Below are positions 8,764 through 31,394 of a stretch of 36,110 nt of DNA, in pieces. The translations under genes were made by a program, and so were the position numbers. The notes under the pieces are model-generated. The model ran no database searches, was not told the DNA's origin, and saw only the letters and a program-made list of their open reading frames with translations. The stretch spans positions 1-36,110 of the forward strand of contig CAJWJW010000001.1 in the NCBI GenBank assembly GCA_913041775.1, written 5' to 3'. The stretch is from an uncultured Flavobacteriales bacterium (GTDB taxonomy: Bacteria > Bacteroidota > Bacteroidia > Flavobacteriales > UBA7430). Numbering within the stretch: the stretch's first letter is position 1; each line of letters starts with the position of its first letter.

Positions 8764-8773
8764 ATTATTTTAC

Positions 8774-12381: not shown

Positions 12382-15300
12382 ATGAAAAAGTTACTACTAT
12401 CTTTTTGTGTTGTTATGTTTAATTTCAACGCTTTTTCACAATGTGAAATCCCACAATTTTTTACTGGAAATACAGGCTCTAATATGACTGTGATGCTTAC
12501 TCCAGACTTTATTAACTCTCTTGCCTTTATTTCTGAAGATGCATATATTGTTGCAGTTACTCCAGAAGGTATGGTTGTTGGTTCTAAAGCTATCTTTGGT
12601 TTGCCTCAGACTTCTTTAGCAGTTTGGGGAGATGATTCTTCTACTACTGAGCTCGATGGAGCTCCTTCTGGTGTTGAAATCAGTTTACAATTAATCGATG
12701 GTGGCAATTTATATGATTTATCAATCCCTAGTGCCATAATTTATTCTACTGGTGGTATGGTTGTGCAAAGTTCTCCTGTTACTGCAGACTTATGTGGTGG
12801 GGATGTTCTTGGCGGAGATTGTGTATATCCAGGTATCTATTCTGGGAATACTGGAAATAACATGACTCTTATGTTAACTCCAGGCTTTATCTCTGCTCTT
12901 TTGATTACAGATGAGTCGGCTTACATTTCAGTTTCATCTAACGGTATGTTAGTTGGTTCTGTTGGTGTTTTCGGTCTTTCTCAAACATCCTTAGCTGTAT
13001 GGGGAGACGATTCTTCTACTCCTGAAACTGATGGTGCTGTACTAGGCGTAAATGTGGTAATGGAATTAGTCGACGGCTCAAACATCTATTTATTGAACAC
13101 TGAAGATGTTGGATACGTTGTGAATGGTACTCAAATTTTATCTTCTTTAAACTCACAAGTTCTTACTTGTGGCTTAATAGATATTGAAGGTTGTATGGAA
13201 GAATGGGCTGAAAACTTCAATCCAAGCGCAAATGTTTCTGATGAATCTTGTTTCTTAACAGGTTGTATGGATTCAGAAGCTAATAACTATATTGAACTTG
13301 CAAACACTGCAAGCGAATGTGAATATTTAGGATGTACAAATTCTAATGCTTGTAATTTTGATGCGCAGGCAAATAACGATGATGATTCTTGTTTCTTTAA
13401 TGAAGTTGGATACGATTGTGACGGTGTTTGTTTGGTCGATTCTGATGCCGATGGTGTTTGTGATGGTTTTGAAGTTTTAGGTTGTATAGATAATACTGCC
13501 TGTAACTATAATGAATTGGCAACTGATGCTGGTTTTTGTACTTACCCTTCAGAAGAATGGTTAAACTGTGAAGAACAGTGTAATAACGATTTAGATAACG
13601 ATGGTGTGTGTGATGAGTTTGAAGTTGAAGGTTGTATTGACCCAACAGCATTTAATTACAATTCAAATGCAACTAACGATGACGGTTCTTGTATTGCTAT
13701 ATCTTTAGGATGTACTAATGTAAACGCCACTAACTTTAATGCTTCTGCTAATACTGATAATGGATCGTGTTTAGTTGAAGGTTGTACAGATGCTTCCGCT
13801 TTTAACTTTAATGCAGATGCAAATATAAACGACGGATCTTGTGAGGCTGTAATTGAAGGTTGTACAGATGTTGATGCTGCAAACTATGATGAGTCTGCAA
13901 ATATTGACAACGGTACATGTGAAGATGTTTCTTACGGTTGTATAGATGCTAACGCTTTAAATTACGATTCAAGTGCCAACACCAACGATGACTCATGTGA
14001 ATACCTTTCGTTTTCTGGTAACTGGCCTTCTTCTGCAGACGGTATTACAAATACAGGGAATAACTCTACAATTGGTGTTTCTGCTGATTTAGATCTTGAA
14101 GATGGTGACTACTTAGGTGCTTTCTACGAATCTAATGGAGAGTTAGTTTGTGGTGGTTTATTAGTTTGGGATACTGATGCTGTAAATCAATTAATTGTTG
14201 TTTGGGGTAATGACGCAAACAGTGAAATTAAAGATGGTTTTGATTCTGGCGAACAAATTGTTTGGAAATCTAGAGATATATCCGCAGACGTAGATGCTAG
14301 TTTATATCCTATTTATTCTTTAGGATCTAATACTTATATGGTAAACGCTGCATATATTATTACAGGTTGGATTATAGATCCTGAATATGGTTGTATGGAT
14401 GCTGCTTATTTAGAGTTTAGTTCTTCTGCTTTAGTTTCAGATGGTTCTTGTTCTATATTTTGGAGTTCTTTATATGCTCTGCAAGCCGATGAATTAGCTG
14501 CTGCAAATGTTGTTATTGATGAGTTGAGTACAGACTTGTTAAATATTAACAATACTTTAAATATGACGATTCTTTCTATGCAATCAGACTTCGATAATAT
14601 GGTGTTAGATTACCAAGGACAGTTGTTTGTTTTAGAAAGTACATTAACTGACTCGTTAAATGATGTACATGCATCTTATATTGCAGACATTACTTCTCTT
14701 AACAGCTCTTGGGATATTGAAGTTGCTGGTTTAGAAAATGACCTTGTTGTATTAAATCAAGGTCTAGTAGATTCTATATCTTCTTATGAAACTCAAATAG
14801 CTAACTTAACTTCATTAATGAATTCTGATGTTGCTGATTTAGAAGCGGCTATTCTTTCTCTTCAGTCTGATAGTTTAGGTTTAGAGAATTTGTTAGCTAG
14901 CACGATTTTAGATTATGATTCTCAAATTGCAACTCTTAATGCTTCATGGGATTCTGAGGTTGCTGGTCTTAATGCAGATATAGATGGTTTAAATACTGAC
15001 TTAGCAAATACAATTTCAAGTTACGACACTCAAATTGCTAACTTAATTAGTTCTTACGACACAGAAATTGTAGCAATCAATGCTACACACGACTTAATTG
15101 TTGAAGGACTTAATGCTGATGCAGCTGCCGCTGCTGATGCTGCACTTGATTTGTTAAATCAAACTATTGATAACTACGACTTAGATCTAGAAAATATGGA
15201 GTTTGATTATGAGTCTCAGTTAGCTACTTTAATTGCTAATTACGATAACACAATCGCAATTCTAAATGCTAACGACGCATCAGAAGATGCAGCTTACGAA

Positions 15301-15888
15301 GAGCACGTAGCTAATTTACAATCAGACAGTACTCAATTTGAATTAGAAATTGATTTCTTAATGACGTATAATGAATCTTTAGATACTGATATTGCTAATT
15401 TACAAGCTGAGAATATTGATCTTACTGAAAACTTAACTTATCATTCTACTGCATTGTATGTTGATTTAAATCAGGGATGGAATATGATTGGTTTCCCTTT
15501 ACAAGAGGAGATGGATGCTGCAGCTTCTTTGGAAGTGCTAGGGTCAGATTTACACTTAATCAAAAACAACTTTGCTGCAGTATATTGGCCAGAATTTGGA
15601 TTCAATAGTTTAGGTACTTTAGTTCCTGGACAAGGATATCAAGTTCGTATGTATGAAGCTTACGCAAATTATACTTTCCCTTATATCTCTGGAGAAAGAT
15701 TAGATGTTTACCCTCAAATACCTACTTGGGCAATAGAAATGGAAATCCCTTCTCATCCAAATGATACTCATACCTTGGTGCGAGTAGTGAATATGATGGG
15801 GCAAGAAGTAATACCTGCCGATGTATTCAAAGGTGAAGTATTATTGTATTTATACTCAGATGGTACAGTTGAAAAGACCATCAATTAA
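12382..15888 (+). CDS. Giant modular secreted protein, paralog 1. Order: signal peptide, 2 NTGSNMT modules, 9 Cys-bounded repeats with 2 TSP3-like motifs, a third NTGSNMT-like module, 1 Cys repeat, ~325 aa acidic helical stalk, conserved C-terminal domain
   Basis: 1168 aa uninterrupted ORF. Signal peptide MKKLLLSFCVVMFNFNAFSQ. Modules identified by internal and between-paralog similarity. Has its own promoter box and terminator. Confidence 0.9.
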   Translation: MKKLLLSFCVVMFNFNAFSQCEIPQFFTGNTGSNMTVMLTPDFINSLAFISEDAYIVAVTPEGMVVGSKAIFGLPQTSLAVWGDDSSTTELDGAPSGVEISLQLIDGGNLYDLSIPSAIIYSTGGMVVQSSPVTADLCGGDVLGGDCVYPGIYSGNTGNNMTLMLTPGFISALLITDESAYISVSSNGMLVGSVGVFGLSQTSLAVWGDDSSTPETDGAVLGVNVVMELVDGSNIYLLNTEDVGYVVNGTQILSSLNSQVLTCGLIDIEGCMEEWAENFNPSANVSDESCFLTGCMDSEANNYIELANTASECEYLGCTNSNACNFDAQANNDDDSCFFNEVGYDCDGVCLVDSDADGVCDGFEVLGCIDNTACNYNELATDAGFCTYPSEEWLNCEEQCNNDLDNDGVCDEFEVEGCIDPTAFNYNSNATNDDGSCIAISLGCTNVNATNFNASANTDNGSCLVEGCTDASAFNFNADANINDGSCEAVIEGCTDVDAANYDESANIDNGTCEDVSYGCIDANALNYDSSANTNDDSCEYLSFSGNWPSSADGITNTGNNSTIGVSADLDLEDGDYLGAFYESNGELVCGGLLVWDTDAVNQLIVVWGNDANSEIKDGFDSGEQIVWKSRDISADVDASLYPIYSLGSNTYMVNAAYIITGWIIDPEYGCMDAAYLEFSSSALVSDGSCSIFWSSLYALQADELAAANVVIDELSTDLLNINNTLNMTILSMQSDFDNMVLDYQGQLFVLESTLTDSLNDVHASYIADITSLNSSWDIEVAGLENDLVVLNQGLVDSISSYETQIANLTSLMNSDVADLEAAILSLQSDSLGLENLLASTILDYDSQIATLNASWDSEVAGLNADIDGLNTDLANTISSYDTQIANLISSYDTEIVAINATHDLIVEGLNADAAAAADAALDLLNQTIDNYDLDLENMEFDYESQLATLIANYDNTIAILNANDASEDAAYEEHVANLQSDSTQFELEIDFLMTYNESLDTDIANLQAENIDLTENLTYHSTALYVDLNQGWNMIGFPLQEEMDAAASLEVLGSDLHLIKNNFAAVYWPEFGFNSLGTLVPGQGYQVRMYEAYANYTFPYISGERLDVYPQIPTWAIEMEIPSHPNDTHTLVRVVNMMGQEVIPADVFKGEVLLYLYSDGTVEKTIN
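13189..14004 (+). repeat. Array of ~21-23 aa Cys-bounded coding repeats (GC[TIM]D..A.N[YF]...AN.[DN][DN]GSC) with two DxDxDGVCD.FEV inserts
   Basis: Nine copies read directly from the translation (aa 270-541 of paralog 1). Diverged at the nucleotide level. Confidence 0.85.
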
Positions 15889-15966: not shown

Positions 15967-18765
15967 ATGAAAAAGCTCTTTTCGGTACTATCTGCATGTT
16001 TGCTGATAGCCCTCCCCTTACAGGCTCAAATTGAGCCGGCTCAATGCGATTTAGATTTCGATTTTGTGAATACAGGATCTAATATGACCGCATTTTTCAC
16101 CCCACCCGCTGCTGCTTCAATCTATAGTGAATTGGGAGATGGTGTTGTTGGTGCTTTTTATTTAGCCGAAAATGGTGAGTTTGTATGTGCTTCTTCCGCT
16201 ACTTTTACTGGTAATCAGTTGCAGTTAGCTGTAATGGCAAATGATGCAACAACTACAGAAAAAGATGGTTTCAATTCTGGAGAAGCTATAAATTGGTTTT
16301 ATCAATCTACTGATGGCACAAGCTATTCTTTATCTTTAGCTCCATCTGATAATTTTGTTATCAATGCGATGACTTTTATTAATTCATCGGCGTATTCTGA
16401 AATTGATTGTGCCGGTGGTAATGACGGTACTTGTCCACCTTTAGATGTAAACTTTGTGAACACTGGATCTAACATGACTTTATTTCTTACTAGTCCCTCT
16501 TTATTGACAGATTTGGGTAATGGAACAGTTGGTGTTTATTTTATAGACGACAATGGTGTTGAAATTTGTGGAGGGGCTTCTAGTTTTTCAGGAGGACAAG
16601 TTCAAATTGCTGCCATGGGTAATGATGCTACAACAAATGTAAAAGATGGTTTTTCTGCAGGAGAAGCTATTGTTTGGAAATTTGAAAGTAACGATGGTAG
16701 TCAATATAATTTAACTCCAAGTCCACAAGATGTTTTTACTTTAAATGCTACTTCTTTCGTAGTTGGTATGTCTAACGATGCAATATCTTGTTCTGTTGAT
16801 GTCGAAGGCTGTACAGATAATACTTATTTAGAGTACAATTCTAATGCAACTATAGATGATGGTTCGTGTATTTTAGTTGCTATTGCGGGCTGTACAGATT
16901 CAAATTATGTTGAGTATTATGCAAATGCAAATGTAGATGATGGCTCCTGTGTTACAGTGAGTTTAGATGGTTGTACAGATGCAACGGCATGTAATTATAA
17001 TTCAGCTGCAACAACAGAGGATGGTTCTTGTTATAATAATGATTTAGGTTGTGGATGTGATACTCCAGCAGCTGATGATGGTTATGATTGTGATGGAAAT
17101 TGTTTAAATGATGCCGATGGAGATCAAGTATGTGATGAAGATGAAGTAGTTGGCTGTCAAGATCAAGAAGCTGACAACTATGATTTAAGTGCAACAGATA
17201 CAGGATATTGTGAATATGAAGGTTGTACAGATACAAGTTATTTAGAGTATGACTCTAGTGCAAACGTTGATGATGGTTCCTGTACTACTTTAATATCCGA
17301 AGGATGTACAGATTCAAATGCAACCAATTATGATTCTTCAGCTAATACTTCTGATGGCTCATGTGAATATGATTTAATTGGTGCAGGATGTTCAGTAAGT
17401 TTTGAAACAACAAATACTGGTTCTAATGCAACAGTATTTCTGACACCAACAGCTGTAGAAGGTACGCCTCTATCATTAGGAGATAATATAGGTGTGTTCT
17501 ATGTTTCAGAAGATGGAAGTGCGCACTGCGCAGGTTCTACTCAGTGGACAGGAGGTGCTGTTCAGATTGCAGCCTATGGAGATGATACAACAACAGATGA
17601 GATAGATGGTTTAAGTTCGGGTGCACCTTTGTTGCTACTTGCTCAATCTGGAGATGATGTATATTTAGTATCAGCCTCTTATGAGACACCAAGTATGTCA
17701 ACATTTGCTATTAACGGTATTTCATTTGTTGTAGGCTTAGATTTTGAATCAGCTTGTACAGTAGAATATTTTGGTTGTACAGATCTGAATGCCTGTAACT
17801 ATGATCTCTCAGCAAATACAGATAACGGTTCTTGTTCATATCCAGAAGAATATTATAACTGTGTAGGTTCTTGTCTTAGTGATTTTGATGAGGATGGTAT
17901 TTGTGATGCTCTTGAATTAGGAGGGTGTACTGATATTACTGCTTCAAATTATGACTCTTCAGCAACGGAAGATGATCTTTCGTGTATTTCGTGGGAAGAT
18001 GCTTACAATTCTTGTGTAGAATCCGGAGGAGATGATGGTGTTTCTCAATCTGATGTAGATGCCGTACAAGCTTTACTAGATGCAATTGTTCCTGAAGACG
18101 GTGTTTCTCAATCTGATGTAGATGCCGTACAAGCTTTACTAGATGCAATTGTGCCAGAAGATGGTGTTTCTCAATCTGATGTAGATGCAGTTCAAGCTTT
18201 ATTAGATGCTATTGTGCCAGAAGACGGTATTACTCAAGCTGATCTAAATGCAGCAAATTCAACTATTTCTTTATTGCAAACTCAATTAGATGAAGCTTTA
18301 GGTAATACAGGATCTTCGTGTGATCCAATTTATGTTGATTTACTAGCTGGATGGAATATAATTGGGTTTACTTTAAACTCAAGTCAAGACGTTGTTGCTA
18401 CCCTGGATCCTATTGTAGATGCTGTACAAATTGTTAAAAACAATGCTGCCAATGTTTATTGGCCAGAGTACGGGTTTAATGGTATTGGAGACTTTATTCC
18501 TGGGCAAGGTTATCAAATCAGAATGTATAATGAGGTTTCTGATTATACATTCCCTGATACTGATGGTCAACGAATGAATTTAAATTTAACAGTTCCTTCA
18601 TATGTGTATGATTTACCTATTTTAAATCATCCAAATGATATAAAATCTCTTGTACGTGTAGTAAATATGTTAGGTCAAGAAGTGAGTCCTGATGAACAAT
18701 TTAAGGGTACGATTTTATTGTATTTATTTAACGATGGTAGTACAGAAAAAAGAATCGTAGAGTAA
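15967..18765 (+). CDS. Giant modular secreted protein, paralog 2. Order: signal peptide, 2 NTGSNMT modules, 6 Cys repeats plus a TSP3-like motif, a third module, 2 Cys repeats plus a TSP3-like motif, 3x21-aa tandem repeat stalk, conserved C-terminal domain
   Basis: The ORF is open from TTG 15961. ATG 15967 (MKKLFSVLSACLLIALPLQAQ) is the likely start. Same module order as paralogs 1 and 3. Confidence 0.9.
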   Translation: MKKLFSVLSACLLIALPLQAQIEPAQCDLDFDFVNTGSNMTAFFTPPAAASIYSELGDGVVGAFYLAENGEFVCASSATFTGNQLQLAVMANDATTTEKDGFNSGEAINWFYQSTDGTSYSLSLAPSDNFVINAMTFINSSAYSEIDCAGGNDGTCPPLDVNFVNTGSNMTLFLTSPSLLTDLGNGTVGVYFIDDNGVEICGGASSFSGGQVQIAAMGNDATTNVKDGFSAGEAIVWKFESNDGSQYNLTPSPQDVFTLNATSFVVGMSNDAISCSVDVEGCTDNTYLEYNSNATIDDGSCILVAIAGCTDSNYVEYYANANVDDGSCVTVSLDGCTDATACNYNSAATTEDGSCYNNDLGCGCDTPAADDGYDCDGNCLNDADGDQVCDEDEVVGCQDQEADNYDLSATDTGYCEYEGCTDTSYLEYDSSANVDDGSCTTLISEGCTDSNATNYDSSANTSDGSCEYDLIGAGCSVSFETTNTGSNATVFLTPTAVEGTPLSLGDNIGVFYVSEDGSAHCAGSTQWTGGAVQIAAYGDDTTTDEIDGLSSGAPLLLLAQSGDDVYLVSASYETPSMSTFAINGISFVVGLDFESACTVEYFGCTDLNACNYDLSANTDNGSCSYPEEYYNCVGSCLSDFDEDGICDALELGGCTDITASNYDSSATEDDLSCISWEDAYNSCVESGGDDGVSQSDVDAVQALLDAIVPEDGVSQSDVDAVQALLDAIVPEDGVSQSDVDAVQALLDAIVPEDGITQADLNAANSTISLLQTQLDEALGNTGSSCDPIYVDLLAGWNIIGFTLNSSQDVVATLDPIVDAVQIVKNNAANVYWPEYGFNGIGDFIPGQGYQIRMYNEVSDYTFPDTDGQRMNLNLTVPSYVYDLPILNHPNDIKSLVRVVNMLGQEVSPDEQFKGTILLYLFNDGSTEKRIVE
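18037..18225 (+). repeat. Three tandem 63-nt coding repeats, each encoding GVSQSDVDAVQALLDAIVPED
   Basis: Copies at 18037, 18100 and 18163. By my alignment all 8 nucleotide differences between copies are synonymous. A degenerate fourth unit follows at 18226. Confidence 0.95.
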
Positions 18766-18904: not shown

Positions 18905-21900
18905 ATGAGAAAAATCTATACTTTTTTCTGTTGTTTGACTTTACTCTTGGCTTCCAGCCAATTGAGTGCCACTAATTTTGATGTCGTAAACACAGGGTCT
19001 AATATGACCGTATTCGTAACTCCAGAGGCAAATATTTCTGGAGACTTTGTAAATGTGACCCAAATTGGTATTTTTTATACTAATGACGCGGGTGAACTTA
19101 CTTGTGCTGGATCGTCTCCTTTTTCAGGAAGCGCACCATTTCAAATTACTGTCTGGGGTACTGAGGCAGCAGAACTTGATAATGGAATGGCTAATGGAGA
19201 AGAGCTAACGTGGTTAGCTCAATCTGACAATGGCTATTTATATGATATCACTCCTTCTTATCAGACTGAGGTAATGAATGTATATGCTTTGAATGCAATT
19301 TCATTTGTAACTGGAATCGATTTTTCTTTAGTTGATTCTTCCGTTATAGAAGGTTGTATGGATGGTCATTACATAGAATACGATGTAAACGCAAATGTTA
19401 ATGTTCAAGCTCTTTGTATTACTTGGAAAGTAACTGGTTGTACTGATGCAGATTATGTAGAATTTAACGAAGATGCTAACTCTGATGATGGATCGTGTGA
19501 GAACTTAGTTCCTACTTGTGATGGTTCTGAAGTAACAATAAATATGTTTGACTCTTATGGAGACGGTGGAGGAAGTGTTACTGTAGGTGACGTTACTGCT
19601 ACTAATGCTGGTGCTGGATCATCAACTATTGCATGTGTAGATTTATCAGCATGTAATGCAGTAGTTTATTTAGCAACTGATACCTATGCATATGAAAATA
19701 GCTGGACTATAACTGACGCATCTGGAGCACTATTAGCAGCAGGTGGAGCAGAAGATGGTTCGTTTGGAGGATGTGTAACAGCATGTACAGATGATACAGC
19801 AACAAACTATAATGCAGATGCAGACATTTCTGACAATGCATTATGTGAGTATGAATTAGTACAAGGATGTACAGAAGCTACCGCTTGTAACTTTGATGCA
19901 ACTGCAGAACAAGATGATGCATCTTGTACTTATGCTGCAGCAGGCTTTGACTGTGACGGAAACTGTATCTCAGGAACACTTGTAACTGTAGACGGTGGAA
20001 ATTATTTAGGAGAAAAATCTTGGACTATTGCAGATTGTGATGGAACAGAATTAGCTGCCGGTGGCGCACCATTTGCTGGATGTGCTGACTTAAGCGGTTC
20101 TTATACAATTAACTTAGTAGATGCATTCGGTGACGGATGGGATGGAACAGTAATGACAATCGGAGAGTCTACTTATACAGTAGAGTCAGGTGCAACAGCA
20201 TCATTCGATATGGGTTGTGTTGTTTTAGGTTGTACAGATGCTACTGCAACAAACTATAATGTAGCTGCTAATACTGATGACGGGTCATGTGACTTTGATG
20301 TTATGGGTTGTACTAACGACCTTGCATGTAACTACGATGTAGCTGCAACTGCTGATAATGGTTCTTGTACTTATGCAGATGCTGGACTTGACTGTGATGG
20401 AAATTCTATAGGTGAGCCTTGTGCTGCTTTAGACTTCTCTTCAGTTAATACTGGATCAAACATGACATTGTTTATTACACCTAATGCTTTAGAAGGACCT
20501 TTATCAATAGGAGACATGATTGGTGTGTTCTATACAAATGATATTGGTAACTTAGTTTGTGCAGGTTCATCATCATGGACTGGGTCTTCAATGCAAGTAA
20601 CTGCATGGGGAGACGATTCTTCTGCAGACGGTATAGATGGATACAACGCAGGAGATGAGCTAGTATGGATGGCTCAAACTTCTGGAGGTATTTATAATAT
20701 TTCTAGTTCATATTCTAATGGTGAAGGAACATATTCCTTGAATGGAGTGTTGTTTGTCTCTGCTTTAGACTATACTTATTCTTGTACAGGTAATGCAGCT
20801 TCAGGTTGTACTGATGCAACTGCTTTAAATTACAGTCCAAACGCTATTGTAGATGATGGATCTTGTATCGCTACAATTGAAGGTTGTATGGATGGTCATT
20901 ACATAGAATACGATGTAAACGCAAATGTTAATGTTCAAGCTCTTTGTATTACTTGGAAAGTAACTGGTTGTACTGATGCAGATTATGTAGAATTTAACGA
21001 AGATGCTAACTCTGATGATGGATCGTGTGAGAACTTAGTTCCTACTTGTGATGGTTCTGAAGTAACAATAAATATGTTTGACTCTTATGGAGACGGTGGA
21101 GGAAGTGTTACTGTAGGTGACGTTACTGCTACTAATGCTGGTGCTGGATCATCAACTATTGCATGTGTAGATTTATCAGCATGTAATGCAGTAGTTTATT
21201 TAGCAACTGATACCTATGCATATGAAAATAGCTGGACTATAACTGACGCATCTGGAGCACTATTAGCAGCAGGTGGAGCAGAAGATGGTTCGTTTGGAGG
21301 ATGTGTAACAGCATGTACAGATGATACAGCAACAAACTATAATGCAGATGCAGACATTTCTGACAATGCATTATGTGAGTATGAATTAGTACAAGGATGT
21401 ACAGAAGCTACCGCTTGTAACTTTGATGCAACTGCAGAACAAGATGATGCATCTTGTACTTATGCTGCAGCAGGCTTTGACTGTGACGGAAACTGTATCT
21501 CAGGAACACTTGTAACTGTAGACGGTGGAAATTATTTAGGAGAAAAATCTTGGACTATTGCAGATTGTGATGGAACAGAATTAGCTGCCGGTGGCGCACC
21601 ATTTGCTGGATGTGCTGACTTAAGCGGTTCTTATACAATTAACTTAGTAGATGCATTCGGTGACGGATGGGATGGAACAGTAATGACAATCGGAGAGTCT
21701 ACTTATACAGTAGAGTCAGGTGCAACAGCATCATTCGATATGGGTTGTGTTGTTTTAGGTTGTACAGATGCTACTGCAACAAACTATAATGTAGCTGCTA
21801 ATACTGATGACGGGTCATGTGAGTATGCTGTTCTAGGTTGTACTGATCTTACTGCTTCTAATTATAACGGTGAAGCAACTGATGATGATGGTTCGTGTAT

Positions 21901-22903
21901 TTCGTGGCTAGATGTTGCTACTGGTTTACAAGCTGATTTAGATTACACAAATGCTGCAATTGTTGAAGCTCAAACTTCACTAGATGCCGCTCTTGTTGCA
22001 ATTTCTGAAATGGAAGCTTTAGGATCTCAGTATTTAGCTGAATATCTTGCTGCTGTAGAAGCTGCTTCATATGCACAAGGTCAGTTAGATGATGCTCTTG
22101 CTAATGTGTCAGACTTAGAAGCTCAATTAGAAACTGCTATGGCAAACCAAGAAGATGGTATATCTCAAGCAGATTTAGATGCTCAAGCCGATTTATCTTA
22201 TGGATATGGTTACGACTTGGGTTACTCTGACGGTGAAGCTTCTGTAACACCAGAAGATGGTATATCTCAAGCTGATGTAGATGCTCAAGCCGATTTATCT
22301 TATGGATATGGTTACGGTGATGGTGCAGCTTCTGTAACACCAGAAGATGGTATATCTCAAGTAGATGTAGATGTTGCTGTAAGTGCTGCAGATCTTATCT
22401 CAGGAGGAATTATTGCTGACTTACAAGCTGAATTAGATGATGCTCTAGCTAATTCTTGCGCTCCTATATATGTTGATATTGTGGATGGATGGAATATCTT
22501 AGGATATACATTGTCTTATGAGCAAGATGTAGTTGCTACACTTTCTTCAATAGAAGTGTCAATTGCTATTGTTAAAGATAATAATGCAAATGTGTACTGG
22601 CCTGAGTTTGGCTTTAATGGTATAGGAAACTTTATTCCTGGTCAAGGTTACCAGATTAAAACATTCTCTGCAATTGAAGGCTATACATGGCCAAATACAA
22701 ATGGTGAGCGTATCGAAATGTCTCCAACAGTACCTCAATGGGCTGCTAATATGGAAGCTGATGTTCATCCAAACGATATTCGTTCACTTGTAAAAGTGGT
22801 GAATATGTTAGGTCAAGAAGTAAATGTTCAAGATCAATTTAAAGGTGAAGTTGTATTGTATTTATACAATGACGGAACTGTAGAAAAGAAAATTGTTCAA
22901 TAA
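18905..22903 (+). CDS. Giant modular secreted protein, paralog 3. Order: signal peptide, NTGSNMT module, duplicated block of Cys repeats plus GDG/SW modules, second NTGSNMT module, second copy of the block, helical segment, tandem acidic repeats, conserved C-terminal domain
   Basis: 1332 aa uninterrupted ORF. Signal peptide MRKIYTFFCCLTLLLASSQLSA. Shares N-terminal module, Cys repeats and C-terminal domain with paralogs 1 and 2. Confidence 0.9.
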   Translation: MRKIYTFFCCLTLLLASSQLSATNFDVVNTGSNMTVFVTPEANISGDFVNVTQIGIFYTNDAGELTCAGSSPFSGSAPFQITVWGTEAAELDNGMANGEELTWLAQSDNGYLYDITPSYQTEVMNVYALNAISFVTGIDFSLVDSSVIEGCMDGHYIEYDVNANVNVQALCITWKVTGCTDADYVEFNEDANSDDGSCENLVPTCDGSEVTINMFDSYGDGGGSVTVGDVTATNAGAGSSTIACVDLSACNAVVYLATDTYAYENSWTITDASGALLAAGGAEDGSFGGCVTACTDDTATNYNADADISDNALCEYELVQGCTEATACNFDATAEQDDASCTYAAAGFDCDGNCISGTLVTVDGGNYLGEKSWTIADCDGTELAAGGAPFAGCADLSGSYTINLVDAFGDGWDGTVMTIGESTYTVESGATASFDMGCVVLGCTDATATNYNVAANTDDGSCDFDVMGCTNDLACNYDVAATADNGSCTYADAGLDCDGNSIGEPCAALDFSSVNTGSNMTLFITPNALEGPLSIGDMIGVFYTNDIGNLVCAGSSSWTGSSMQVTAWGDDSSADGIDGYNAGDELVWMAQTSGGIYNISSSYSNGEGTYSLNGVLFVSALDYTYSCTGNAASGCTDATALNYSPNAIVDDGSCIATIEGCMDGHYIEYDVNANVNVQALCITWKVTGCTDADYVEFNEDANSDDGSCENLVPTCDGSEVTINMFDSYGDGGGSVTVGDVTATNAGAGSSTIACVDLSACNAVVYLATDTYAYENSWTITDASGALLAAGGAEDGSFGGCVTACTDDTATNYNADADISDNALCEYELVQGCTEATACNFDATAEQDDASCTYAAAGFDCDGNCISGTLVTVDGGNYLGEKSWTIADCDGTELAAGGAPFAGCADLSGSYTINLVDAFGDGWDGTVMTIGESTYTVESGATASFDMGCVVLGCTDATATNYNVAANTDDGSCEYAVLGCTDLTASNYNGEATDDDGSCISWLDVATGLQADLDYTNAAIVEAQTSLDAALVAISEMEALGSQYLAEYLAAVEAASYAQGQLDDALANVSDLEAQLETAMANQEDGISQADLDAQADLSYGYGYDLGYSDGEASVTPEDGISQADVDAQADLSYGYGYGDGAASVTPEDGISQVDVDVAVSAADLISGGIIADLQAELDDALANSCAPIYVDIVDGWNILGYTLSYEQDVVATLSSIEVSIAIVKDNNANVYWPEFGFNGIGNFIPGQGYQIKTFSAIEGYTWPNTNGERIEMSPTVPQWAANMEADVHPNDIRSLVKVVNMLGQEVNVQDQFKGEVVLYLYNDGTVEKKIVQ
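19349..20292 (+). repeat. Copy 1 of a 944-bp perfect direct repeat inside paralog 3
   Basis: Line-by-line comparison with 20879-21822 (offset exactly 1530 nt, i.e. 510 codons) showed no mismatch. Confidence 0.93.
20879..21822 (+). repeat. Copy 2 of the 944-bp perfect direct repeat inside paralog 3
   Basis: Identical to 19349-20292 and in the same reading frame. Identity ends at the codon gac/gag (D463 versus E973). Confidence 0.93.
22151..22342 (+). repeat. Tandem coding repeats of 102 and 90 nt (EDGISQAD[LV]DAQADLSYGYGY...ASVTP), with a partial third unit from 22343
   Basis: Units start at 22151, 22253 and 22343. They are near-identical apart from one internal indel. Confidence 0.9.
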
Positions 22904-22920
22904 ATTATTTTCTGATAATC

Positions 22921-22953
22921 AAAAGCCTCTTCTGAAAAGAAGAGGCTTTTTTT
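22921..22953 (+). terminator. Rho-independent terminator after paralog 3
   Basis: 8-bp stem gcctcttc (22925-22932) / gaagaggc (22939-22946) with loop tgaaaa, then T7. Confidence 0.8.
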
Positions 22954-22995
22954 ATGCTTAAACCTTAATGTACTTGTACCTTTTAGATAGATTAT

Positions 22996-23003
22996 TATCT
23001 TTG
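22996..23003 (+). promoter_or_regulatory. Candidate -7 box TAtcTTTG for the DUF4199-GT2-GT4 genes
   Basis: Exact TAnnTTTG, 18 nt upstream of ATG 23022. Confidence 0.4.
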
Positions 23004-23021
23004 TTCTAAACAATATTAAAT

Positions 23022-23555
23022 ATGTCTGAAGAATTAAAACAACATGTGCTTAAAAATGGATTAAGCCTTGGAGCAATATTAGTTGCCATTACTACAATTA
23101 CTTATATTGGAGGTCCTGAATTACTAACGAATTATGCTGTATCTATCAGTTCATTTGTTTTAATGATCGCTTTCCCTATTTATCACACTCGTAGATTTAG
23201 ATCTTTAAATGATGGCTTTATAAGCTTCAGAGATGCATTTACCTCTTGTACGGGTATCTTAATTGCTGCAGGCTTTATAAATACCTTTGCGAGTATTCTT
23301 CTTTACAATATAATCGATCCAGATTTTGGTCTTGAGGTTATTGATGCTATTATTAATAAAACAGTTTCTCAATTAGAAAGTATAGGAGCAGAGGAGTCTA
23401 TAATTGAAGCAACAATAAAGAACTTGGAGGAAGGTTCTAGTTTTGATGCACTTAATATGTTTAAGGGCTTCATCTTCTCTATAGTCTTTTATACCGTATT
23501 TGGTCTTTTAGTTGCAGCTTTCACTAAGAACGAAAATCAACAACTTAGCGAGTAA
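23022..23555 (+). CDS. DUF4199-family membrane protein
   Basis: 177 aa with four predicted TM helices and an ISFRDAF motif. It sits upstream of a GT2 gene, as in many Bacteroidota (recollection, not searched). Confidence 0.65.
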   Translation: MSEELKQHVLKNGLSLGAILVAITTITYIGGPELLTNYAVSISSFVLMIAFPIYHTRRFRSLNDGFISFRDAFTSCTGILIAAGFINTFASILLYNIIDPDFGLEVIDAIINKTVSQLESIGAEESIIEATIKNLEEGSSFDALNMFKGFIFSIVFYTVFGLLVAAFTKNENQQLSE

Positions 23556-23559
23556 TTAA

Positions 23560-24504
23560 GTGGAGAAACTACAACTATCTATCTGTATACCTCTGTTTAA
23601 CGAGGCCGAATCACTTCAAGAACTTCACTCATGGATAACACGAGTGATGGTGAAACATTCTTTTACCTACGAAATAGTTTTTGTAGATGATGGAAGTACT
23701 GATAATTCATGGGAAATTGTTGCTAATCTAGCTAAAGACGATAGTTCTGTAAAAGGAATTAAATTTCGCAGAAATTATGGTAAATCTGCGGGGCTTTATG
23801 TAGCTTTCGAAGCTGCTAAAGGAGATGTTATTATTACCATGGACGCAGACTTACAAGATAGCCCTGAAGAAATAGCAGAGCTCTATAGAATGATTAAGGA
23901 AGATGGATTACACCTTGTTTCGGGATATAAAGAAAAGCGATTTGACCCCTTAACAAAAACAATCCCTACAAAACTATTTAATTGGGCTACTAGAAAAATG
24001 TCTGGTATAACTTTAAACGATTTTAATTGTGGCTTAAAGTCCTACGACCATAAAGTAGTTAAGAGCATTGAGGTTTACGGCGAAATGCATCGTTATATTC
24101 CCGTATTAGCTAAATGGGCTGGATTTGATAAAATTGGTCAAAAGGTTGTACAACACCAAGAAAGAAAATATGGTGTTACTAAATTTGGAATTGAACGTTT
24201 TATAAACGGATTCTTAGATTTATTCACAGTTATGTTTATTTCTAAATTTGGTAAAAAACCAATGCACCTTTTTGGATTAATGGGTGTTTTAAGCTTTGCT
24301 ATTGGTTTTGCAATTGCTACCTATTTAGTTTTTGCTAAACTTATGTGGCAAGCTTATAATATGACAGATAGACCTTTGTTTTACTTTGGGATGTTAGCTA
24401 TGATAATTGGAGCACAATTATTCATGACTGGCTTTATAGCAGAATTAATTGCTCGTTCTAACACCGATCGCAATAAATATATTATAGAAGACCTTCTGAA
24501 TTAA
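23560..24504 (+). CDS. Family 2 glycosyltransferase, polyprenyl-phosphate sugar transferase type (GtrB/ArnC/DPM1-like), GTG start
   Basis: 314 aa. LSICIPLFNEAESL, FVDDGSTDNS, ITMDADLQD (DxD), and two C-terminal TM helices. There is an in-frame stop immediately upstream of the GTG, and the first ATG would remove the conserved N-terminus. Confidence 0.88.
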   Translation: MEKLQLSICIPLFNEAESLQELHSWITRVMVKHSFTYEIVFVDDGSTDNSWEIVANLAKDDSSVKGIKFRRNYGKSAGLYVAFEAAKGDVIITMDADLQDSPEEIAELYRMIKEDGLHLVSGYKEKRFDPLTKTIPTKLFNWATRKMSGITLNDFNCGLKSYDHKVVKSIEVYGEMHRYIPVLAKWAGFDKIGQKVVQHQERKYGVTKFGIERFINGFLDLFTVMFISKFGKKPMHLFGLMGVLSFAIGFAIATYLVFAKLMWQAYNMTDRPLFYFGMLAMIIGAQLFMTGFIAELIARSNTDRNKYIIEDLLN

Positions 24505-24509
24505 TATTA

Positions 24510-25631
24510 TTGGAAAAGAAAAAAATTATTCTCATTGGTCCTGCATTTCCTCTACGTGGAGGTATTGCAGATAGTAACCATTCCTTAGCTTTAGCTTTAC
24601 AGCACTTAGGACACGAGATAATTATGCTTTCTTTTTCGATTCAGTACCCTTCTTTTTTATTCCCAGGAAAGACTCAGTTCGATTTTAAGTGCGTTAAACC
24701 ACCTATAGAAATTCATACATCTATAAATTCTGTAAATCCATTATCTTGGATTAAAACAGCTTTATGGCTTCGAAAACAAAAACCTGACCTGATTATTACC
24801 AGATTTTGGATACCCTTTATGGGTGCAGCTTTAGGTTCTGTCTTAAAGTTCTCGCGTTTAAAAAGTAGTACCCCACTCATTGCTTTATGTGACAATGTTA
24901 TCCCACATGAAAAGAGAATGGGCGACCGATTATTAACCTCCTATTTTCTTAAAGCAAATAATCAATTTTTGGTGATGTCTAAGTCTGTAGGGAAAGACAT
25001 CAATAAATTCATTAAGAGTCCAAAAGTTAATTTCCATCCACATCCTGTGTATGATCAATTTGGAGATTTACAAGAAAAAAATACTGCATTAAAGAGCTTG
25101 AATCTTGATCTCGCTAAGAAATATATTTTGTTTTTTGGATTTATCAGAAGGTATAAAGGACTCGATTTATTGATTGAATCTCTACCTTCAATAAATGATA
25201 ATGTTGAATTAATTGTTGCTGGCGAGTTTTATGAATCTAAGCTAGATTACACAAATTTAGTCCAACAATTAGGCTTAAGCGCTAGAGTTCATTTTCATGC
25301 AGATTTTATTCCTCAAGAAAAAGTTGCTACTTTTTTCTCTGCTTGCGACATCTTAGTTCAACCATATAGATCTGCTACACAGAGTGGTGTTGCTCAAATT
25401 GCTTATCATTTTAATAAACCTATTTTGGTGACTAATGTTGGTGGACTACCAGAAATAGTTCCTCATAATAAAGTAGGTTATGTAGTGGAGGTAGACCCTA
25501 CCGAAATTTCATTAGCCATTAATGATTTTTATGATAATGATAGAGAATTAGAGTTTATAGAAAATGTAAAAGAGGAAAAGAAAAAGTATTCTTGGATTAA
25601 TATGGCTAGTCAAATCATTAACACATTATAA
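24510..25631 (+). CDS. Group 1 (GT4-like) glycosyltransferase, TTG start
   Basis: 373 aa. C-terminal GT-B signature region (FFGFIRRYKGLDLL, ILVQPYRSATQSGV, GGLPEIV). Confidence 0.82.
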   Translation: MEKKKIILIGPAFPLRGGIADSNHSLALALQHLGHEIIMLSFSIQYPSFLFPGKTQFDFKCVKPPIEIHTSINSVNPLSWIKTALWLRKQKPDLIITRFWIPFMGAALGSVLKFSRLKSSTPLIALCDNVIPHEKRMGDRLLTSYFLKANNQFLVMSKSVGKDINKFIKSPKVNFHPHPVYDQFGDLQEKNTALKSLNLDLAKKYILFFGFIRRYKGLDLLIESLPSINDNVELIVAGEFYESKLDYTNLVQQLGLSARVHFHADFIPQEKVATFFSACDILVQPYRSATQSGVAQIAYHFNKPILVTNVGGLPEIVPHNKVGYVVEVDPTEISLAINDFYDNDRELEFIENVKEEKKKYSWINMASQIINTL

Positions 25632-25681
25632 CATCTACTGCGTAGTATAAATTAGTATATTTAGCCTCTTAAAATTAGATT

Positions 25682-28600
25682 ATGAAATTGAGAAACCTAT
25701 TTGCTAGTTTACTATTAATACCTTCATTCCTTTTTGCTCAATCGTTTAATGTTGAGTCAGAAGTTGAAGCCTATTTACAAAAAAACAGCACCAAGCTTGC
25801 GTTAAGTCAAAACGACTTTCAAGACTACTCTATTTACAGAGATTATTATAGTAAGCAAACACATTTGCAACATGTTTTTTTACAACAAAACTATTCTGGG
25901 ATACCTATACATAAAGCAGAAATCCGCTTACATTACAGAGAAGACAAAGGTTGGATGCAAACGCAGAATACTTTTGTTTCGGATCTAGAAAACCAACAAG
26001 TATTTAGCCAAACAAGCTTAAATCAAATTCAAGCTATTGAATCTGCTTGTAGAATTTTAGAAATCGACTATTCTAAACCGAATAGAATTTCCAAAAATAA
26101 CGAAACGACATCTCTTTATTCTGCAGATTTCTCTATTGATGCAATCCCAGTGAAAGAAGCGTACTTTGAAATTAATAATACACTCAGAAAAGTATGGGAT
26201 TTAACAATCTACGAAAATGATGCTACCGATTGTTGGAATGTACTTGTTGATGCAACTACAGGAGAAATACTACGTAAGTATAACTGGGTTCAACACTGTT
26301 CGTTTAATTCTACTGCAGACTGTAGTCATGATAATCACGATAAAGTTTTAGCTATTGAAGAGTTTATTGCAACTCCTGTAGTCGGTCCTTCATATAATGT
26401 ATTTGCTATTCCATTAGAAAGTCCTTCACATGGGGATAGAACCATGGAGGTTTCTCCTAGTAATGCAGATGCGTCTCCTTTTGGATGGCACGACACTAAT
26501 GCTTTAGAAGGCCCCGAATATTATATTACTAGAGGAAATAATGTACACGCCTATTCTGACCTTACAGACTCTAATACGCCTCAAGGTGATGAACCTACTG
26601 GTGGCTTCGATTTGGTTTTCGATTATCCTTTCGATGCTATGACAGAACCAGATCAGAATCTTGATGCAGCTACGGTAAACTTGTTTTATATGGCTAATAT
26701 GATGCACGATGTTTGGTATCACTATGGATTTGATCCTGCTTCGGGTAATTTTCAATTCAATAACTATGGTGAAACTGGTTTTGGAAACGATTATGTACTT
26801 GCACAAGCTCAAGATTCAAGTGGTATTGATCAAAATATAGCCTTAAACAATGCCAATTTTATGACTCCAAACGATGGGTCTAACCCAGTCATGCAAATGT
26901 ATATTTGGGATAAACCAGCAAATCCATTTGATTTATTTACGGTTAATTCTCCTGAGCAATTTGCAGGAGTTTACGAAGTTTCACCGACAACAGATTGGGC
27001 TGGAGAAATCACCAGTATTCCTCTTACTGCTGATATTGTTCCTGTAGACGATGGCTCGGCATATGGTATAGAAGGCTGTGGTGAGATATTAAATGATCTA
27101 ACCGGGAAAATTGCACTTGTTAGCCGTGGTACTTGCGAATTCAGTACAAAGGCATTAAATGCTCAAAATGCTGGAGCAATTGCTGTAATTATTTACAATA
27201 ATGTGGGAGGTATTATTGGAATGGCTGCAGGTGTTGATGCTGCTGAAGTGACTATTCCTGCTGTTTTTATGGGGAAATATAATGGAGATGAGTTTTACAA
27301 TTACCTGTTGGGTGATGGTGTTATAAATGCAACCTTTGTTAACAACTCACCTCCAGGTCCTTCTTATTTAGATGGCGACTTTGATAACGGTATCATTGCA
27401 CACGAATATGGTCATGGAATCTCTTCTCGTTTAACTGGTGGAAACTGTTTATACGGAGACGAACAAGCAGGTGAAGGTTGGAGTGATTTCTTCGGTTTAG
27501 CAATGACTTCAAAAGTAGGCGATACAGGAGCAATGTCTCGTGGAATTGGAACCTATGTTTCGGCAGAGAATAACGATGGTAGAGGAATACGTTCTTATCC
27601 ATATAGTAGAGATATGGGCTTAAACCCTATGACCTACGATAATATTATTACTGAGTCTGTGCCTCATGGTGTTGGTTCTGTTTGGGCTACTATGATTTGG
27701 GATTTATACTGGAATTTCACGGATTTATACGGTTACGATACTGATAGATACAACGGTACTGGAGGTAATAATATGGTAATGCAATTGGTAATTGATGGTT
27801 TGAAATTACAACCTTGTAATGCTAATTTTACAGAAATGAGAGATGCCGTAATTCTGGCAGATGAATATTTATACAACGGAGAAAATGCTTGTATGATTTG
27901 GGAGACTTTTGCTCGTAGAGGATTAGGTTACTCTTCCAATGCTGGTTCTGCTGACGATAGAGGCGATGGAATTGAAGCATTTGATAATATTCCTGAATGC
28001 ATTAAAACTTTAAAGATTGTTAAGTCTGCAATTGCTGATGCTAACTCTTCTGATGACTTATTATACACTTTAAGCGTATACAATCATACACCTGATTCTG
28101 CTATGGCTGTATATATTGTTGATACTTTACAAGCTGATGTGTCTTTTATTAGTGAGTCTGCTACCTGTGATGCACAAATAGAAGGGAATGTTTTAACCTT
28201 TACACTAGGCGATATGCAAACTGGGGAATCGATAGAATGTTCTTACTCAGTGAGTCCAAACGAAAACTTGTTTAGTGAAGTTATTTTCGAAGATGATATG
28301 GAAGATGATGACTATTACTGGATAACGTGGGCAGACGAAGGTTTTGACCCAGAATGGGCTTTAATAGATTTTGAAGCTAATAGTGGTGAGTATGCATGGT
28401 ATGCTCCAAATGTTGATTACCGCACAGTTTCTTACCTAGGCTTAGAGCCATTCACAGTAGAAGGAAACGCTCCTACTTTAAGTTTCTGGCATCAATACAG
28501 TACGGAAGCTAGTTACGATGGTGGTTATATTTCTGTTTCTACAGATGAAGTAAACTTCGAACAAGTGAGTTCAAGTATTATTAGAGGCCATTATAGAGGT

Positions 28601-29167
28601 GTTTCTCAAGCATCGCCTCCTCTAGGTGGTATTAACTCTTTCTGGGGTAACAGTGATGGTTTTGTAAATACTTTGGTTGATTTATCTAACTATATGGGCG
28701 AAACAATTACCATCCGTTTTACTTATGTTACAGACGATGGCAATTCTACTGAAGAAGTAGAAGGTTGGACTATTGACGATGTACGTATTATAGATCGTTT
28801 CCAAGTTGAAAATACGGCTTGTGTTTATAGTGCAAGCTCTTCAGATCTCTCTTGCGATAATGTTTCTGATGGTGGTACACTTATGTTCGATCATTACGGA
28901 GTTTCTGTAGATGAAGTCGAAGAAGTTTCTTTCGCACATCTATACCCTAATCCTTCTAAAGATGCATGTACTATTTCTTTAGCTGGACTTTGGTCAGATG
29001 ATGTACAAGTGGTTATTTACGATGTACAAGGGAAAGTAGTTTTAAACGAAATACAGTCTAATTTGAATTTCACTATCCAAACAAAAAACTTCGCAAATGG
29101 TTTATACTTTGTTGAACTTAACGATGGAAGTAATAAATTAATGAAAAAACTTACCGTTGTTCATTAA
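25682..29167 (+). CDS. M36 (fungalysin-type) zinc metalloprotease with PA domain, extra beta-rich domains and a T9SS type-A C-terminal sorting domain
   Basis: 1161 aa.
- Signal peptide, then an N-terminal propeptide-like region.
- HEYGHGISSRLTGG plus EGWSDFF, the M36 zinc site.
- PA-domain stretch GKIALVSRGTCEFSTKALNAQNAGAIAVIIYNN.
- C-terminus LYPNPSKD...VVIYDVQGKVV...GLYFVELNDGSNKLMKKLTVVH, a canonical T9SS CTD. Confidence 0.9.
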   Translation: MKLRNLFASLLLIPSFLFAQSFNVESEVEAYLQKNSTKLALSQNDFQDYSIYRDYYSKQTHLQHVFLQQNYSGIPIHKAEIRLHYREDKGWMQTQNTFVSDLENQQVFSQTSLNQIQAIESACRILEIDYSKPNRISKNNETTSLYSADFSIDAIPVKEAYFEINNTLRKVWDLTIYENDATDCWNVLVDATTGEILRKYNWVQHCSFNSTADCSHDNHDKVLAIEEFIATPVVGPSYNVFAIPLESPSHGDRTMEVSPSNADASPFGWHDTNALEGPEYYITRGNNVHAYSDLTDSNTPQGDEPTGGFDLVFDYPFDAMTEPDQNLDAATVNLFYMANMMHDVWYHYGFDPASGNFQFNNYGETGFGNDYVLAQAQDSSGIDQNIALNNANFMTPNDGSNPVMQMYIWDKPANPFDLFTVNSPEQFAGVYEVSPTTDWAGEITSIPLTADIVPVDDGSAYGIEGCGEILNDLTGKIALVSRGTCEFSTKALNAQNAGAIAVIIYNNVGGIIGMAAGVDAAEVTIPAVFMGKYNGDEFYNYLLGDGVINATFVNNSPPGPSYLDGDFDNGIIAHEYGHGISSRLTGGNCLYGDEQAGEGWSDFFGLAMTSKVGDTGAMSRGIGTYVSAENNDGRGIRSYPYSRDMGLNPMTYDNIITESVPHGVGSVWATMIWDLYWNFTDLYGYDTDRYNGTGGNNMVMQLVIDGLKLQPCNANFTEMRDAVILADEYLYNGENACMIWETFARRGLGYSSNAGSADDRGDGIEAFDNIPECIKTLKIVKSAIADANSSDDLLYTLSVYNHTPDSAMAVYIVDTLQADVSFISESATCDAQIEGNVLTFTLGDMQTGESIECSYSVSPNENLFSEVIFEDDMEDDDYYWITWADEGFDPEWALIDFEANSGEYAWYAPNVDYRTVSYLGLEPFTVEGNAPTLSFWHQYSTEASYDGGYISVSTDEVNFEQVSSSIIRGHYRGVSQASPPLGGINSFWGNSDGFVNTLVDLSNYMGETITIRFTYVTDDGNSTEEVEGWTIDDVRIIDRFQVENTACVYSASSSDLSCDNVSDGGTLMFDHYGVSVDEVEEVSFAHLYPNPSKDACTISLAGLWSDDVQVVIYDVQGKVVLNEIQSNLNFTIQTKNFANGLYFVELNDGSNKLMKKLTVVH

Positions 29168-29193
29168 TCCTGTTGTTTAAAACCTAATTTTTT

Positions 29194-29226
29194 AAATGCC
29201 ACCGAAATTCGGTGGCATTTTTGTTT
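29194..29226 (+). terminator. Rho-independent terminator after the M36 protease gene
   Basis: Stem aaatgccaccg (29194-29204) / cggtggcattt (29210-29220) with loop aaatt, followed by a T-rich tail. Confidence 0.8.
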
Positions 29227-29237
29227 TTGCTATATTT

Positions 29238-29509: not shown

Positions 29510-29573
29510 AATACAAAATGCCGAAGCTTCATTCTGAGAAAAAGTATCTTTATATTTACCAAAACTTCTATTT

Positions 29574-30260: not shown

Positions 30261-30332
30261 GGTTTATTTTAATTATTTAGCTTCTAAAAATTATAAAAAC
30301 ACTTTCTTGAACTGTTTTAATACAATCAATTC

Positions 30333-31280: not shown

Positions 31281-31394
31281 TCTAAACCAGAAAACAGCTT
31301 ACACAGTACTTATAAATTTTTCATCTAATTATGCCACAAAAAAATGCTTTTCAGATATTTTATCCGAAAGTCATTTTTAATTTTATAATAAATA

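Follow-up and report, generated by a model that had tools for sequence, protein, structure and literature searches.

Organization of p3 and its identical repeats

The window analyzed here, a stretch of 36,110 nucleotides (nt) from an uncultured Flavobacteriales bacterium (contig CAJWJW010000001.1, positions 1 to 36,110), carries a cluster of three paralogous genes, termed p1, p2 and p3, and the third of these contains a long internal duplication. On the basis of its open reading frame (ORF) and translation, p3 (18905–22903, plus strand, as are p1, p2 and the parts of p3 described below) is predicted to encode a modular secreted or surface protein of 1332 amino acids (aa), and both copies of the duplicated block A, termed A1 (19349–20292) and A2 (20879–21822), lie within this single ORF. 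In a position-by-position comparison the two copies are identical at 944 of 944 positions, and their offset is exactly 1530 nt, or 510 codons, so that the duplication is in frame; the original prediction for this DNA, which had claimed a perfect 944-nt duplication with this offset, is borne out in both respects. No other identical run of 15 nt or more exists at the 1530-nt offset, and a perfect match of 944 nt cannot have arisen by chance.

From its N-terminus, p3 consists of a signal-peptide-like segment, an N-module (N1), block A, a spacer (Cys repeat, second N-module N2, Cys repeat), block A again, a Cys repeat, a stalk and a conserved C-terminal domain. The protein can be described as two arms, each composed of an N-module followed by block A (315 aa), with the stalk and the C-terminal domain after the arms. 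The signal-peptide-like N-terminus MRKIYTFFCCLTLLLASSQLSA (18905–18970) is putative, as it was recognized by eye from the translation, and is near-identical in the related proteins P0001–P0003 and in the related locus L069 (P- and L-labels denote proteins and loci of relatives, from independent metagenome assemblies). N1 (18971–19348, about 126 aa) carries an NTGSNMT motif and stands at the start of arm 1. A1 comprises, in order, Cys repeats a1 and a2, a GDGG/SW module, Cys repeats a4 and a5, an SW/GDGW module and Cys repeat a7; this content, five Cys repeats and one module of each of the other two types in about 314.7 codons, is as first described. The unique 586-nt spacer S (20293–20878) had been said to encode a second NTGSNMT module and one Cys repeat. 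The module, N2 (about 20420–20800), is indeed present, but it is flanked by a Cys repeat on each side (about 20293–20419 and 20801–20878), and S accordingly holds two of them. Both arms start, at the head of block A, with the same 21-nt motif GAAGGTTGTATGGATGGTCAT, which encodes EGCMDGH and lies at 19349–19369 in arm 1 and, by motif comparison, at 20879–20899 in arm 2.

The Cys repeat after A2 (21823–21915), with which the tail R begins, is about 60–74% identical to the Cys repeat after A1 and marks the right limit of the older homology. It is followed by a stalk-like region (21916–22420), in which a coiled-coil-like stretch precedes imperfect EDGISQADVD... repeats (22118–22373; spacings of 102 and 90 nt, 91–97% identity). 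The number of stalk units differs widely between orthologues, for example in P0004, P0005 and L070. The conserved C-terminal region (22421–22900, about 160 aa) is common to p1, p2, p3 and all orthologues, and over about its final 40 aa it is similar to the terminal part of the C-terminal domain (CTD) of the type IX secretion system (T9SS).

The block boundaries of A fall on module boundaries. The left edge is sharp: upstream of it the in-register identity is about 30%, equal to that of random sequence, and 2 of the 3 bases immediately 5′ of 19349 match as well. At the right edge, identity of about 60% continues over about 80 nt, corresponding to the next Cys repeat, and beyond that it is random; because this Cys repeat retains similarity, BLAST reports a repeat of 1030 nt at 97.4%. 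TRF finds no tandem array at the 944-nt repeat.

The contrast with the other repeats of these genes, on which the original prediction had relied, also holds. N1 and N2 are identical at 44% of aa, 54% of nt and 37% of third codon positions, the Cys repeats are 60–83% identical among themselves, and the C-terminal parts of p1, p2 and p3 are 65–81% identical. As N1 and N2 adjoin the identical blocks but are anciently diverged, the identity of A is not a leftover of the original duplication of the unit.

Conservation of the two-arm layout among relatives

Positional orthologues of p3, that is, genes located after p2 and, contig permitting, before the genes for DUF4199, GT2, GT4 and M36 proteins, are located in L062, L063, L069 and L070. 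The positional orthologues have near-identical N- and C-termini and very different middles. Their lengths are 891 aa (P0004), 1022 aa (P0003/L061), 1179 aa (P0002/L063), 1332 aa in the window, 1455 aa (P0001/L062), at least 1542 aa in L069, where the contig end cuts the gene, 2370 aa in L070 and about 3000 aa, with frameshifts, in L149. The nt identity of the flanks to those of the window is 91–94% for L069, 86–95% for L061, 75–80% for L063, 65–75% for L070 and 65–77% for L062. The length differences stem from different module content and not from the copy number of one unit. The predicted variation in protein size is seen between lineages (891 to 2370 aa or more, among orthologues at 66–94% nt identity), but no 510-aa series is seen within one population. 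P0004 represents, by architecture, a natural one-arm version. In L149 (119–9180; metagenome-assembled genome (MAG) X_MB68, 627-kb contig), an orthologue of about 9 kb extends over three frames and includes four units of about 1.1 kb at 91–96% identity that are made of a different module type; indel errors of long reads or decay to a pseudogene could account for the broken frame.

A comparison of the locus with relatives, which had been proposed together with the original prediction, was run and shows that all four junctions of p3 (N1–A, A–S, S–A and A–tail) recur in positional orthologues from independent metagenome assemblies. The N1–A junction, with an HY-type Cys repeat, is present in L061 and L062; the A1–S junction is 93% conserved at the aa level in L069; the S–A2 junction is present in L069, L070 and L061, in all of which the HY-type Cys repeat after N2 is conserved and the spacer is found; and the junction of A2 with the tail R is present in L063 (81%) and P0005 (77%). 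The spacer and the junctions are shared with the orthologues at 75–94% nt identity. In L069 the spacer is collinear with that of the window, and a single 1331-nt alignment at 88% identity joins window positions 19773–21100 to L069 positions 7764–9094 and thereby covers the 3′ part of A1, all of S and the 5′ part of A2. As junctions and spacer are common to the relatives, the two-arm layout was in place before these lineages separated, and the copies must have become identical later.

L069, the closest relative, likely shows the state before conversion. Both of its arms begin with the 21-mer GAAGGTTGTATGGATGGTCA(T/C), which likewise encodes EGCMDGH and matches the motif of the window exactly in one case and with 1 mismatch in the other. 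After the 21-mer the two arms of L069 diverge directly, arm 1 continuing with an HS-type and arm 2 with an HY-type Cys repeat, and the flank alignment between the window and L069 ends at 19370, just past the motif. In L069 and the window alike, both arms end in an SW/GDGW module and a Cys repeat. The Cys repeat after N1 is of the HS type in L069, L063 and P0004 and of the HY type in the window, L061 and L062.

Near-identical direct repeats in other lineages

Of 135 family loci, 7 have direct repeats that are 400 nt or longer and at least 95% identical. L070 has a 2364-nt block behind N1 and a second copy of it 3132 nt further downstream, behind N2; the initial 2256 nt show 0 mismatches, and the 14 mismatches all fall within the final 108 nt. 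The block of L069 is 1329 nt long and returns 2397 nt further downstream; its initial 198 nt contain 33 differences, and the following 1131 nt contain 1. The perfect cores of L069 and L070 differ in content from that of the window and are bordered by older homology of 83–87% identity, which gives them the look of conversion tracts ending inside older paralogous sequence. L061, in which the corresponding copies are 86.6% identical over 307 nt (BLAST), has the look of a locus without conversion.

Copies of the SW/GDGW module are 100% identical within the window, 92–99% within L069 and 83–86% between the two. By these comparisons, the copies are closer to each other within a genome than to their positional counterparts in relatives, as is expected in concerted evolution. 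The paralogy is also older than the homogenization, as shown by the shared junctions, the collinear A–S–A order of L069 and the 54% nt identity of N1 and N2. A diverged shoulder is found in the window on the right side (about 80 nt at 60–74%), and the left side has only the shared 21-nt motif, followed by random sequence; in L069 and L070 such a shoulder is clear on one side each.

Further long repeats were noted in other, more distant family members. These include direct repeats of 939 nt at 99.3% (L081 1–2228, offset 1290), 531 nt at 98.5% (L058 10429–12702, offset 1743) and 492 nt at 95.5% (L083 864–2816, offset 1461), and tandem repeats at 97.6–98.5% with periods of about 231–243 nt (L007 13250–14019 and 17821–18848).

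Origin of the repeat identity

Three origins had been proposed for the perfect identity: a recent unequal crossover, gene conversion and an assembly artefact. Gene conversion is favored here, whereas a simple unequal crossover does not fit, and a false duplication is very unlikely. Simple tandem duplication by a single unequal crossover is rejected, as tandem identity would then extend over 1530 nt; the identity observed covers 944 nt, and the 586-nt spacer is unique.

We regard it as fairly probable that the identity results from intragenic gene conversion that took place recently within an older two-arm framework, the modular protein being prone to recombination. In the lineage of the window, the block of arm 2 (A2) would recently have been copied over the matching block of arm 1. 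Such copying would proceed by non-reciprocal homologous recombination, which can be viewed as intragenic gene conversion or, in equivalent terms, as a double exchange between misaligned sister chromosomes. On the left, exchange would take place in the 21-nt EGCMDGH motif that opens both arms, which is the proposed left anchor, and on the right in the SW/GDGW module and Cys repeat that close both arms, so that the outcome would be perfect identity out to the limits of the pre-existing homology. The course of the event from A2 to A1, its RecA dependence and its date are inferences; A2, the position of which is conserved in the relatives, is the likely donor.

Several points weigh against this explanation. 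The polarity is ambiguous by parsimony, as L061 and L062 also carry an HY-type Cys repeat after N1, and L149 is too distant to polarize the copying event. The left anchor of 21 nt is at the lower limit for RecA-dependent exchange, so that illegitimate or microhomology-mediated joining might have formed the left end instead. No second full-length allele of the same population (99% identity or more) was found, and no length variants within the population were seen. The p3 protein is absent from the protein collection by exact-sequence look-up, as are those of p1 and p2; a protein search with the spacer and both junctions returned no fragment above 61% identity; the best match to the first 200 aa in a protein search is 82% identical, and no independent assembly of the population of the window covers the repeat; and the exact 29-mer at the end of A is absent from JGI metagenome contigs. 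In addition, if the source assembly is a short-read one with loop resolution or bubble popping, the identity could be a by-product of the method and the copy number a guess, and the same would apply to L069 and L070.

This last point leads to the alternative that the perfection of the repeat is an effect of assembly or polishing. According to this explanation, which is unlikely but has several observations in its favor, the two-arm topology is real, and the copies differ slightly or number more than two, a collapsed edge having been traversed twice or multi-mapped reads having been used in polishing. p3 is evidently hard to assemble. Four contigs (five loci, as L065 and L073 belong to one record) from TARA and other marine metagenomes, which were found by look-up of the downstream DUF4199 protein, match window positions 21634–33555 at 99.3–99.8% nt identity; all of these short-read contigs of the same population end inside p3 and none spans it. 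The ends of four loci (three contigs) lie at 22274–22362, in the stalk repeats, and one lies at 21634, inside A2. L064 reaches 189 nt into A2, which exceeds k − 1 for its k of 119, so that its end point is uninformative as to a branch of the assembly graph. The perfect cores of L069 and L070, with their differences all at one edge, are also what a collapsed repeat edge would give, and the repeats of the long-contig locus L149 are only 91–96% identical, though that gene is frameshifted and may be error-rich. On the other hand, the window is contiguous over 36 kb, with intact ORFs through three repeat-rich paralogues, and collapse needs near-identity, roughly 98–99% or more. As the copies must be near-identical in order to collapse, recent homogenization, compared with the 54% identity of the neighboring N-modules, stands even then. 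What an assembly effect would mainly put in doubt is whether the identity is exactly 100% and the copy number exactly two.

The alternative that a new copy of A was placed beside N1 by de novo segmental duplication, with no arm being overwritten, is improbable. Unequal crossover, a template switch during replication or joining through microhomology at the borders of Cys repeats could have brought this about. It would suit the perfectly sharp left boundary, upstream of which no diverged homology exists, and the location of both boundaries at edges of Cys repeats with short conserved motifs in common; one-arm architectures (P0004, P0002/L063) and much module shuffling across the family are also in keeping with it. 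Against it, the single unequal crossover needs 1530 nt of identity, as opposed to the 944 nt seen with the 586-nt spacer present once; the spacer and both A junctions are already collinear in L069; and the junction of N1 with an HY-type Cys repeat also exists in L061 and L062, leaving no novel junction to explain.

A more far-reaching reading, which we consider speculative and doubtful, is that p3 is a dedicated two-armed display protein, in which arms with different N-modules are actively kept identical in each lineage while the module content turns over, and in which the ubiquitous 78-nt Cys-repeat linkers and the EGCMDGH motif serve as recombination joints. If true, p3 would unite concerted evolution with a bacterial counterpart of exon shuffling; selection might have favored bivalent binding or rapid changes, within populations, among forms with one, two and three arms.

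A false duplication, in which the genome has a single copy of A and the contig is chimeric or mis-joined, could appeal to the general difficulty of repeat assembly and to the fact that no independent assembly of the strain spans the region, but is very unlikely indeed, because the unique 586-nt S has A on both sides with differing outer flanks, so that any single genome holding S holds A at least twice, and because the A–S–A order is collinear in L069, the other junctions occur in L061, L063 and L070, and the reading frame is kept throughout.

Possible consequences of recombination within p3

Two identical direct repeats of 944 nt, with 586 nt between them, lend themselves well to unequal exchange. 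A single exchange between A1 and A2 would delete the spacer and one copy of A, resulting in an in-frame one-arm protein of 822 aa (N1–A–tail) with native junctions only and the architecture of P0004. The reciprocal product, longer by one unit of S and A, would have 1842 aa. Length and the number of N-modules would thereby shift in steps of 510 aa, each step corresponding to one N-module and seven other modules. We infer these variants and steps from general knowledge of recombination between direct repeats. The hypothetical 822-aa product aligns with P0004 end to end in a single high-scoring segment pair at 57.6% identity, whereas the real p3 protein aligns with it only in pieces.

The mechanism itself is textbook knowledge and a known way for bacterial surface proteins to change size; the family is uncharacterized, and the recurrence of the pattern across lineages is a good comparative observation. 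p3 provides a clean case of intragenic homogenization, with blocks of 100% identity beside neighbors of 54% and with orthologues of about 0.9 to more than 2.3 thousand residues in abundant uncultured marine Flavobacteriales. Should population data bear this out, variation in the length and valency of surface proteins, known best from pathogens that are Gram-positive, would extend to free-living bacteria of the ocean, in which phage, grazers and attachment to particles are likely pressures. A practical warning also follows: short-read metagenome assemblies break in p3 or collapse it, and records of its diversity are systematically incomplete as a result.

Comparison with known systems

Periscope Proteins (SasG, Aap, Rib and Sgo_0707) are repetitive bacterial surface proteins of variable length, whose long repeats are identical at the DNA level and vary in number by intragenic recombination, and short-read assemblies fail on their genes (PMC8201768). 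They are the nearest named class, and by analogy p3 would work like one of them in principle. Like the genes of these proteins, p3 has long DNA-identical segments inside a putative surface-protein gene, the high DNA identity of which is proposed to permit in-frame length steps of whole domains; it has a putative binding module at the N-terminus and stalk-like repeats near the C-terminus; and its short-read assembly fails. Unlike them, p3 does not have the tandem array that defines the class but two copies separated by a 586-nt spacer carrying a second N-module. Its unit is a composite of seven modules (315 aa) instead of a single folded domain, its orthologues differ in module content and not in the copy number of one unit, and its host is a Gram-negative Bacteroidota bacterium of seawater, without a wall-anchor motif in the protein. 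With its signal-peptide-like N-terminus and its confidently predicted beta-sandwich N-module, the p3 protein is putatively located at the surface, and its repeat might act as a rod-like stalk.

Helicobacter pylori cagY is reported to have many direct DNA repeats in one surface-exposed protein gene, and recombination between these yields in-frame variants, which makes the gene an inbuilt source of protein variants (PMC2194252). p3 resembles cagY in that direct repeats inside one gene could generate in-frame protein variants. The cagY repeats are short and numerous, and the protein belongs to a type IV secretion system of a host-adapted pathogen under immune selection. By comparison, p3 has two copies of kilobase scale and belongs to a free-living marine bacterium, and its rearranged variants are hypothetical.

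Most descriptions of concerted evolution by gene conversion concern tandem arrays or gene families. p3 and its orthologues share with such cases the genome-wise likeness of the copies, the perfect tracts that adjoin older diverged homology (in L069 and L070), and an architecture that is kept while the content is homogenized. They differ from such cases in that the homogenized blocks are arms of one protein, with a module content specific to each lineage.

SprB-type adhesins provide a comparison system within Bacteroidota. p3 resembles T9SS cargo and the fibrillar adhesins of Bacteroidota (for a survey of fibrillar adhesins, see PMC9210967) in its Sec-type N-terminus, its many small beta-sandwich and Cys-rich modules and its stalk-like repeats, and in addition the tail resembles the last strands of a T9SS CTD. 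Homologues with the same modules end in PF18962 domains. Unlike in type A cargo of the T9SS, however, a C-terminal sorting domain (PF18962 or TIGR04183) is not recognized in p3: no T9SS CTD model of Pfam or NCBIfam matches p1, p2 or p3, and searches with the C-terminal 57 or 160 aa are negative even at E-values up to 10. When an alignment of p3-family tails is compared with 23 canonical T9SS CTDs by hhalign, the probability is only 26% (P = 7e-4, over 20 columns). That p3 is a T9SS cargo is plausible from its context, namely the CTD of a neighboring gene product (see below) and the homologues that end in PF18962.

Modules and predicted structures

No match was found in Pfam and NCBIfam for the whole p3 protein or its pieces, the C-terminal region included, and a sequence search of the PDB returned nothing meaningful for p3. 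AlphaFold2 predicts N2 as a seven-strand beta-sandwich with a mean predicted local distance difference test score (pLDDT) of 92.6, and the A unit (pLDDT 90.4) as beta-sandwich domains at residues of about 58–146 and 208–295, with small Cys modules joining them. In Foldseek searches of the PDB, neither model had a match below E = 0.01, the best E-values being 0.013 and 0.014; only generic beta-sandwich and weak local CBM60/GH2-like matches were returned.

The NTGSNMT N-module occurs eight times in p1–p3 (12442–12822, 12820–13200, 14023–14403, 16042–16422, 16432–16812, 17386–17766, 18962–19342 and, for N2, 20420–20800); it is widespread in proteins of marine Bacteroidota and looks like an uncurated domain family. 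The (D/N)SYGDG(W/G)(N/D)G modules are confidently predicted beta-sandwiches without a Pfam model, both in the A unit (19349–20290) and in homologues (P0025, P0077, P0078 and P0115). The 26-aa repeat GCTDxxAxNYNxxAxxDDGSC, also without a Pfam model, is present in tens of copies in thousands of marine metagenome proteins (2066 matches with E ≤ 0.001 among 8000 candidates scored). As these three module types have no Pfam family or solved structural relative, yet are widespread in marine metagenomes, they are worth curating.

Genomic neighborhood and host

p1 (12382–15888) encodes a protein of 1168 aa that shares the C-terminal domain, N-modules and Cys repeats with p3, and its orthologue in L063 (2971–6477) is equally long despite an nt identity of about 75%. 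p2 (15967–18765) encodes a member of the same family of about 932 aa, whose orthologues vary in length, with 1104 aa in L063 and an open frame of 1249 codons in L069. The constant length of p1, compared with the variable length of p2 and above all p3, indicates that the instability is specific to particular genes within the cluster. p2 also includes, in a stalk-like region, an imperfect tandem repeat at 18030–18251 (a 63-nt unit in 3.5 copies, 89% identity), which encodes EDGVSQSDVDAVQALLDAIVP.

Upstream of the cluster lie genes for malate dehydrogenase, dihydrofolate reductase, thymidylate synthase, a nucleoside transporter, electron transfer flavoprotein and other housekeeping functions. Between these and p1–p3 are genes for a 685-aa protein without a family match and for a DUF5723 protein; these two proteins might be export or anchoring partners of p1–p3. 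Downstream of p3 are genes for DUF4199, GT2, GT4 and M36 metallopeptidase proteins, followed by further housekeeping genes and two-component genes. The region 8818–29167, from the gene for the 685-aa protein through those for DUF5723, p1, p2, p3, DUF4199, GT2 and GT4 to the M36 gene, is kept wholly or partly in L062, L063, L070 and L071, depending on the extent of the contigs. A mobile element or site-specific recombinase is an unlikely cause of the rearrangements, as the flanks hold housekeeping genes and no transposase or integrase is found; the window is ordinary chromosome. The product of the M36 gene (25682–29167) matches NF038113 (T9SS-dependent M36 metallopeptidase; 892.9 bits, above the cut-off) and PF18962, and this canonical CTD in a neighbor of p3 indicates that the host encodes or uses a T9SS.

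The relatives are all from MAGs of marine Flavobacteriales or from metagenome contigs. The four marine contigs with 99.3–99.8% identity described above indicate that the organism is an abundant uncultured marine flavobacterium; the GT2 protein of the nearest GTDB species representative (L149) is only 85% identical at the aa level. Family members were also noted in bins labeled as Methanobacteriota archaeon, Comamonadaceae and Candidatus Neomarinimicrobiota (L005, L008, L019, L024, L029 and others), and one (P0171) is found in a transcriptome set of Phaeocystis antarctica. For some of these unexpected taxa the assignment is probably due to binning error or contamination, and for Neomarinimicrobiota, with its many loci, it may reflect real sharing of the module set.

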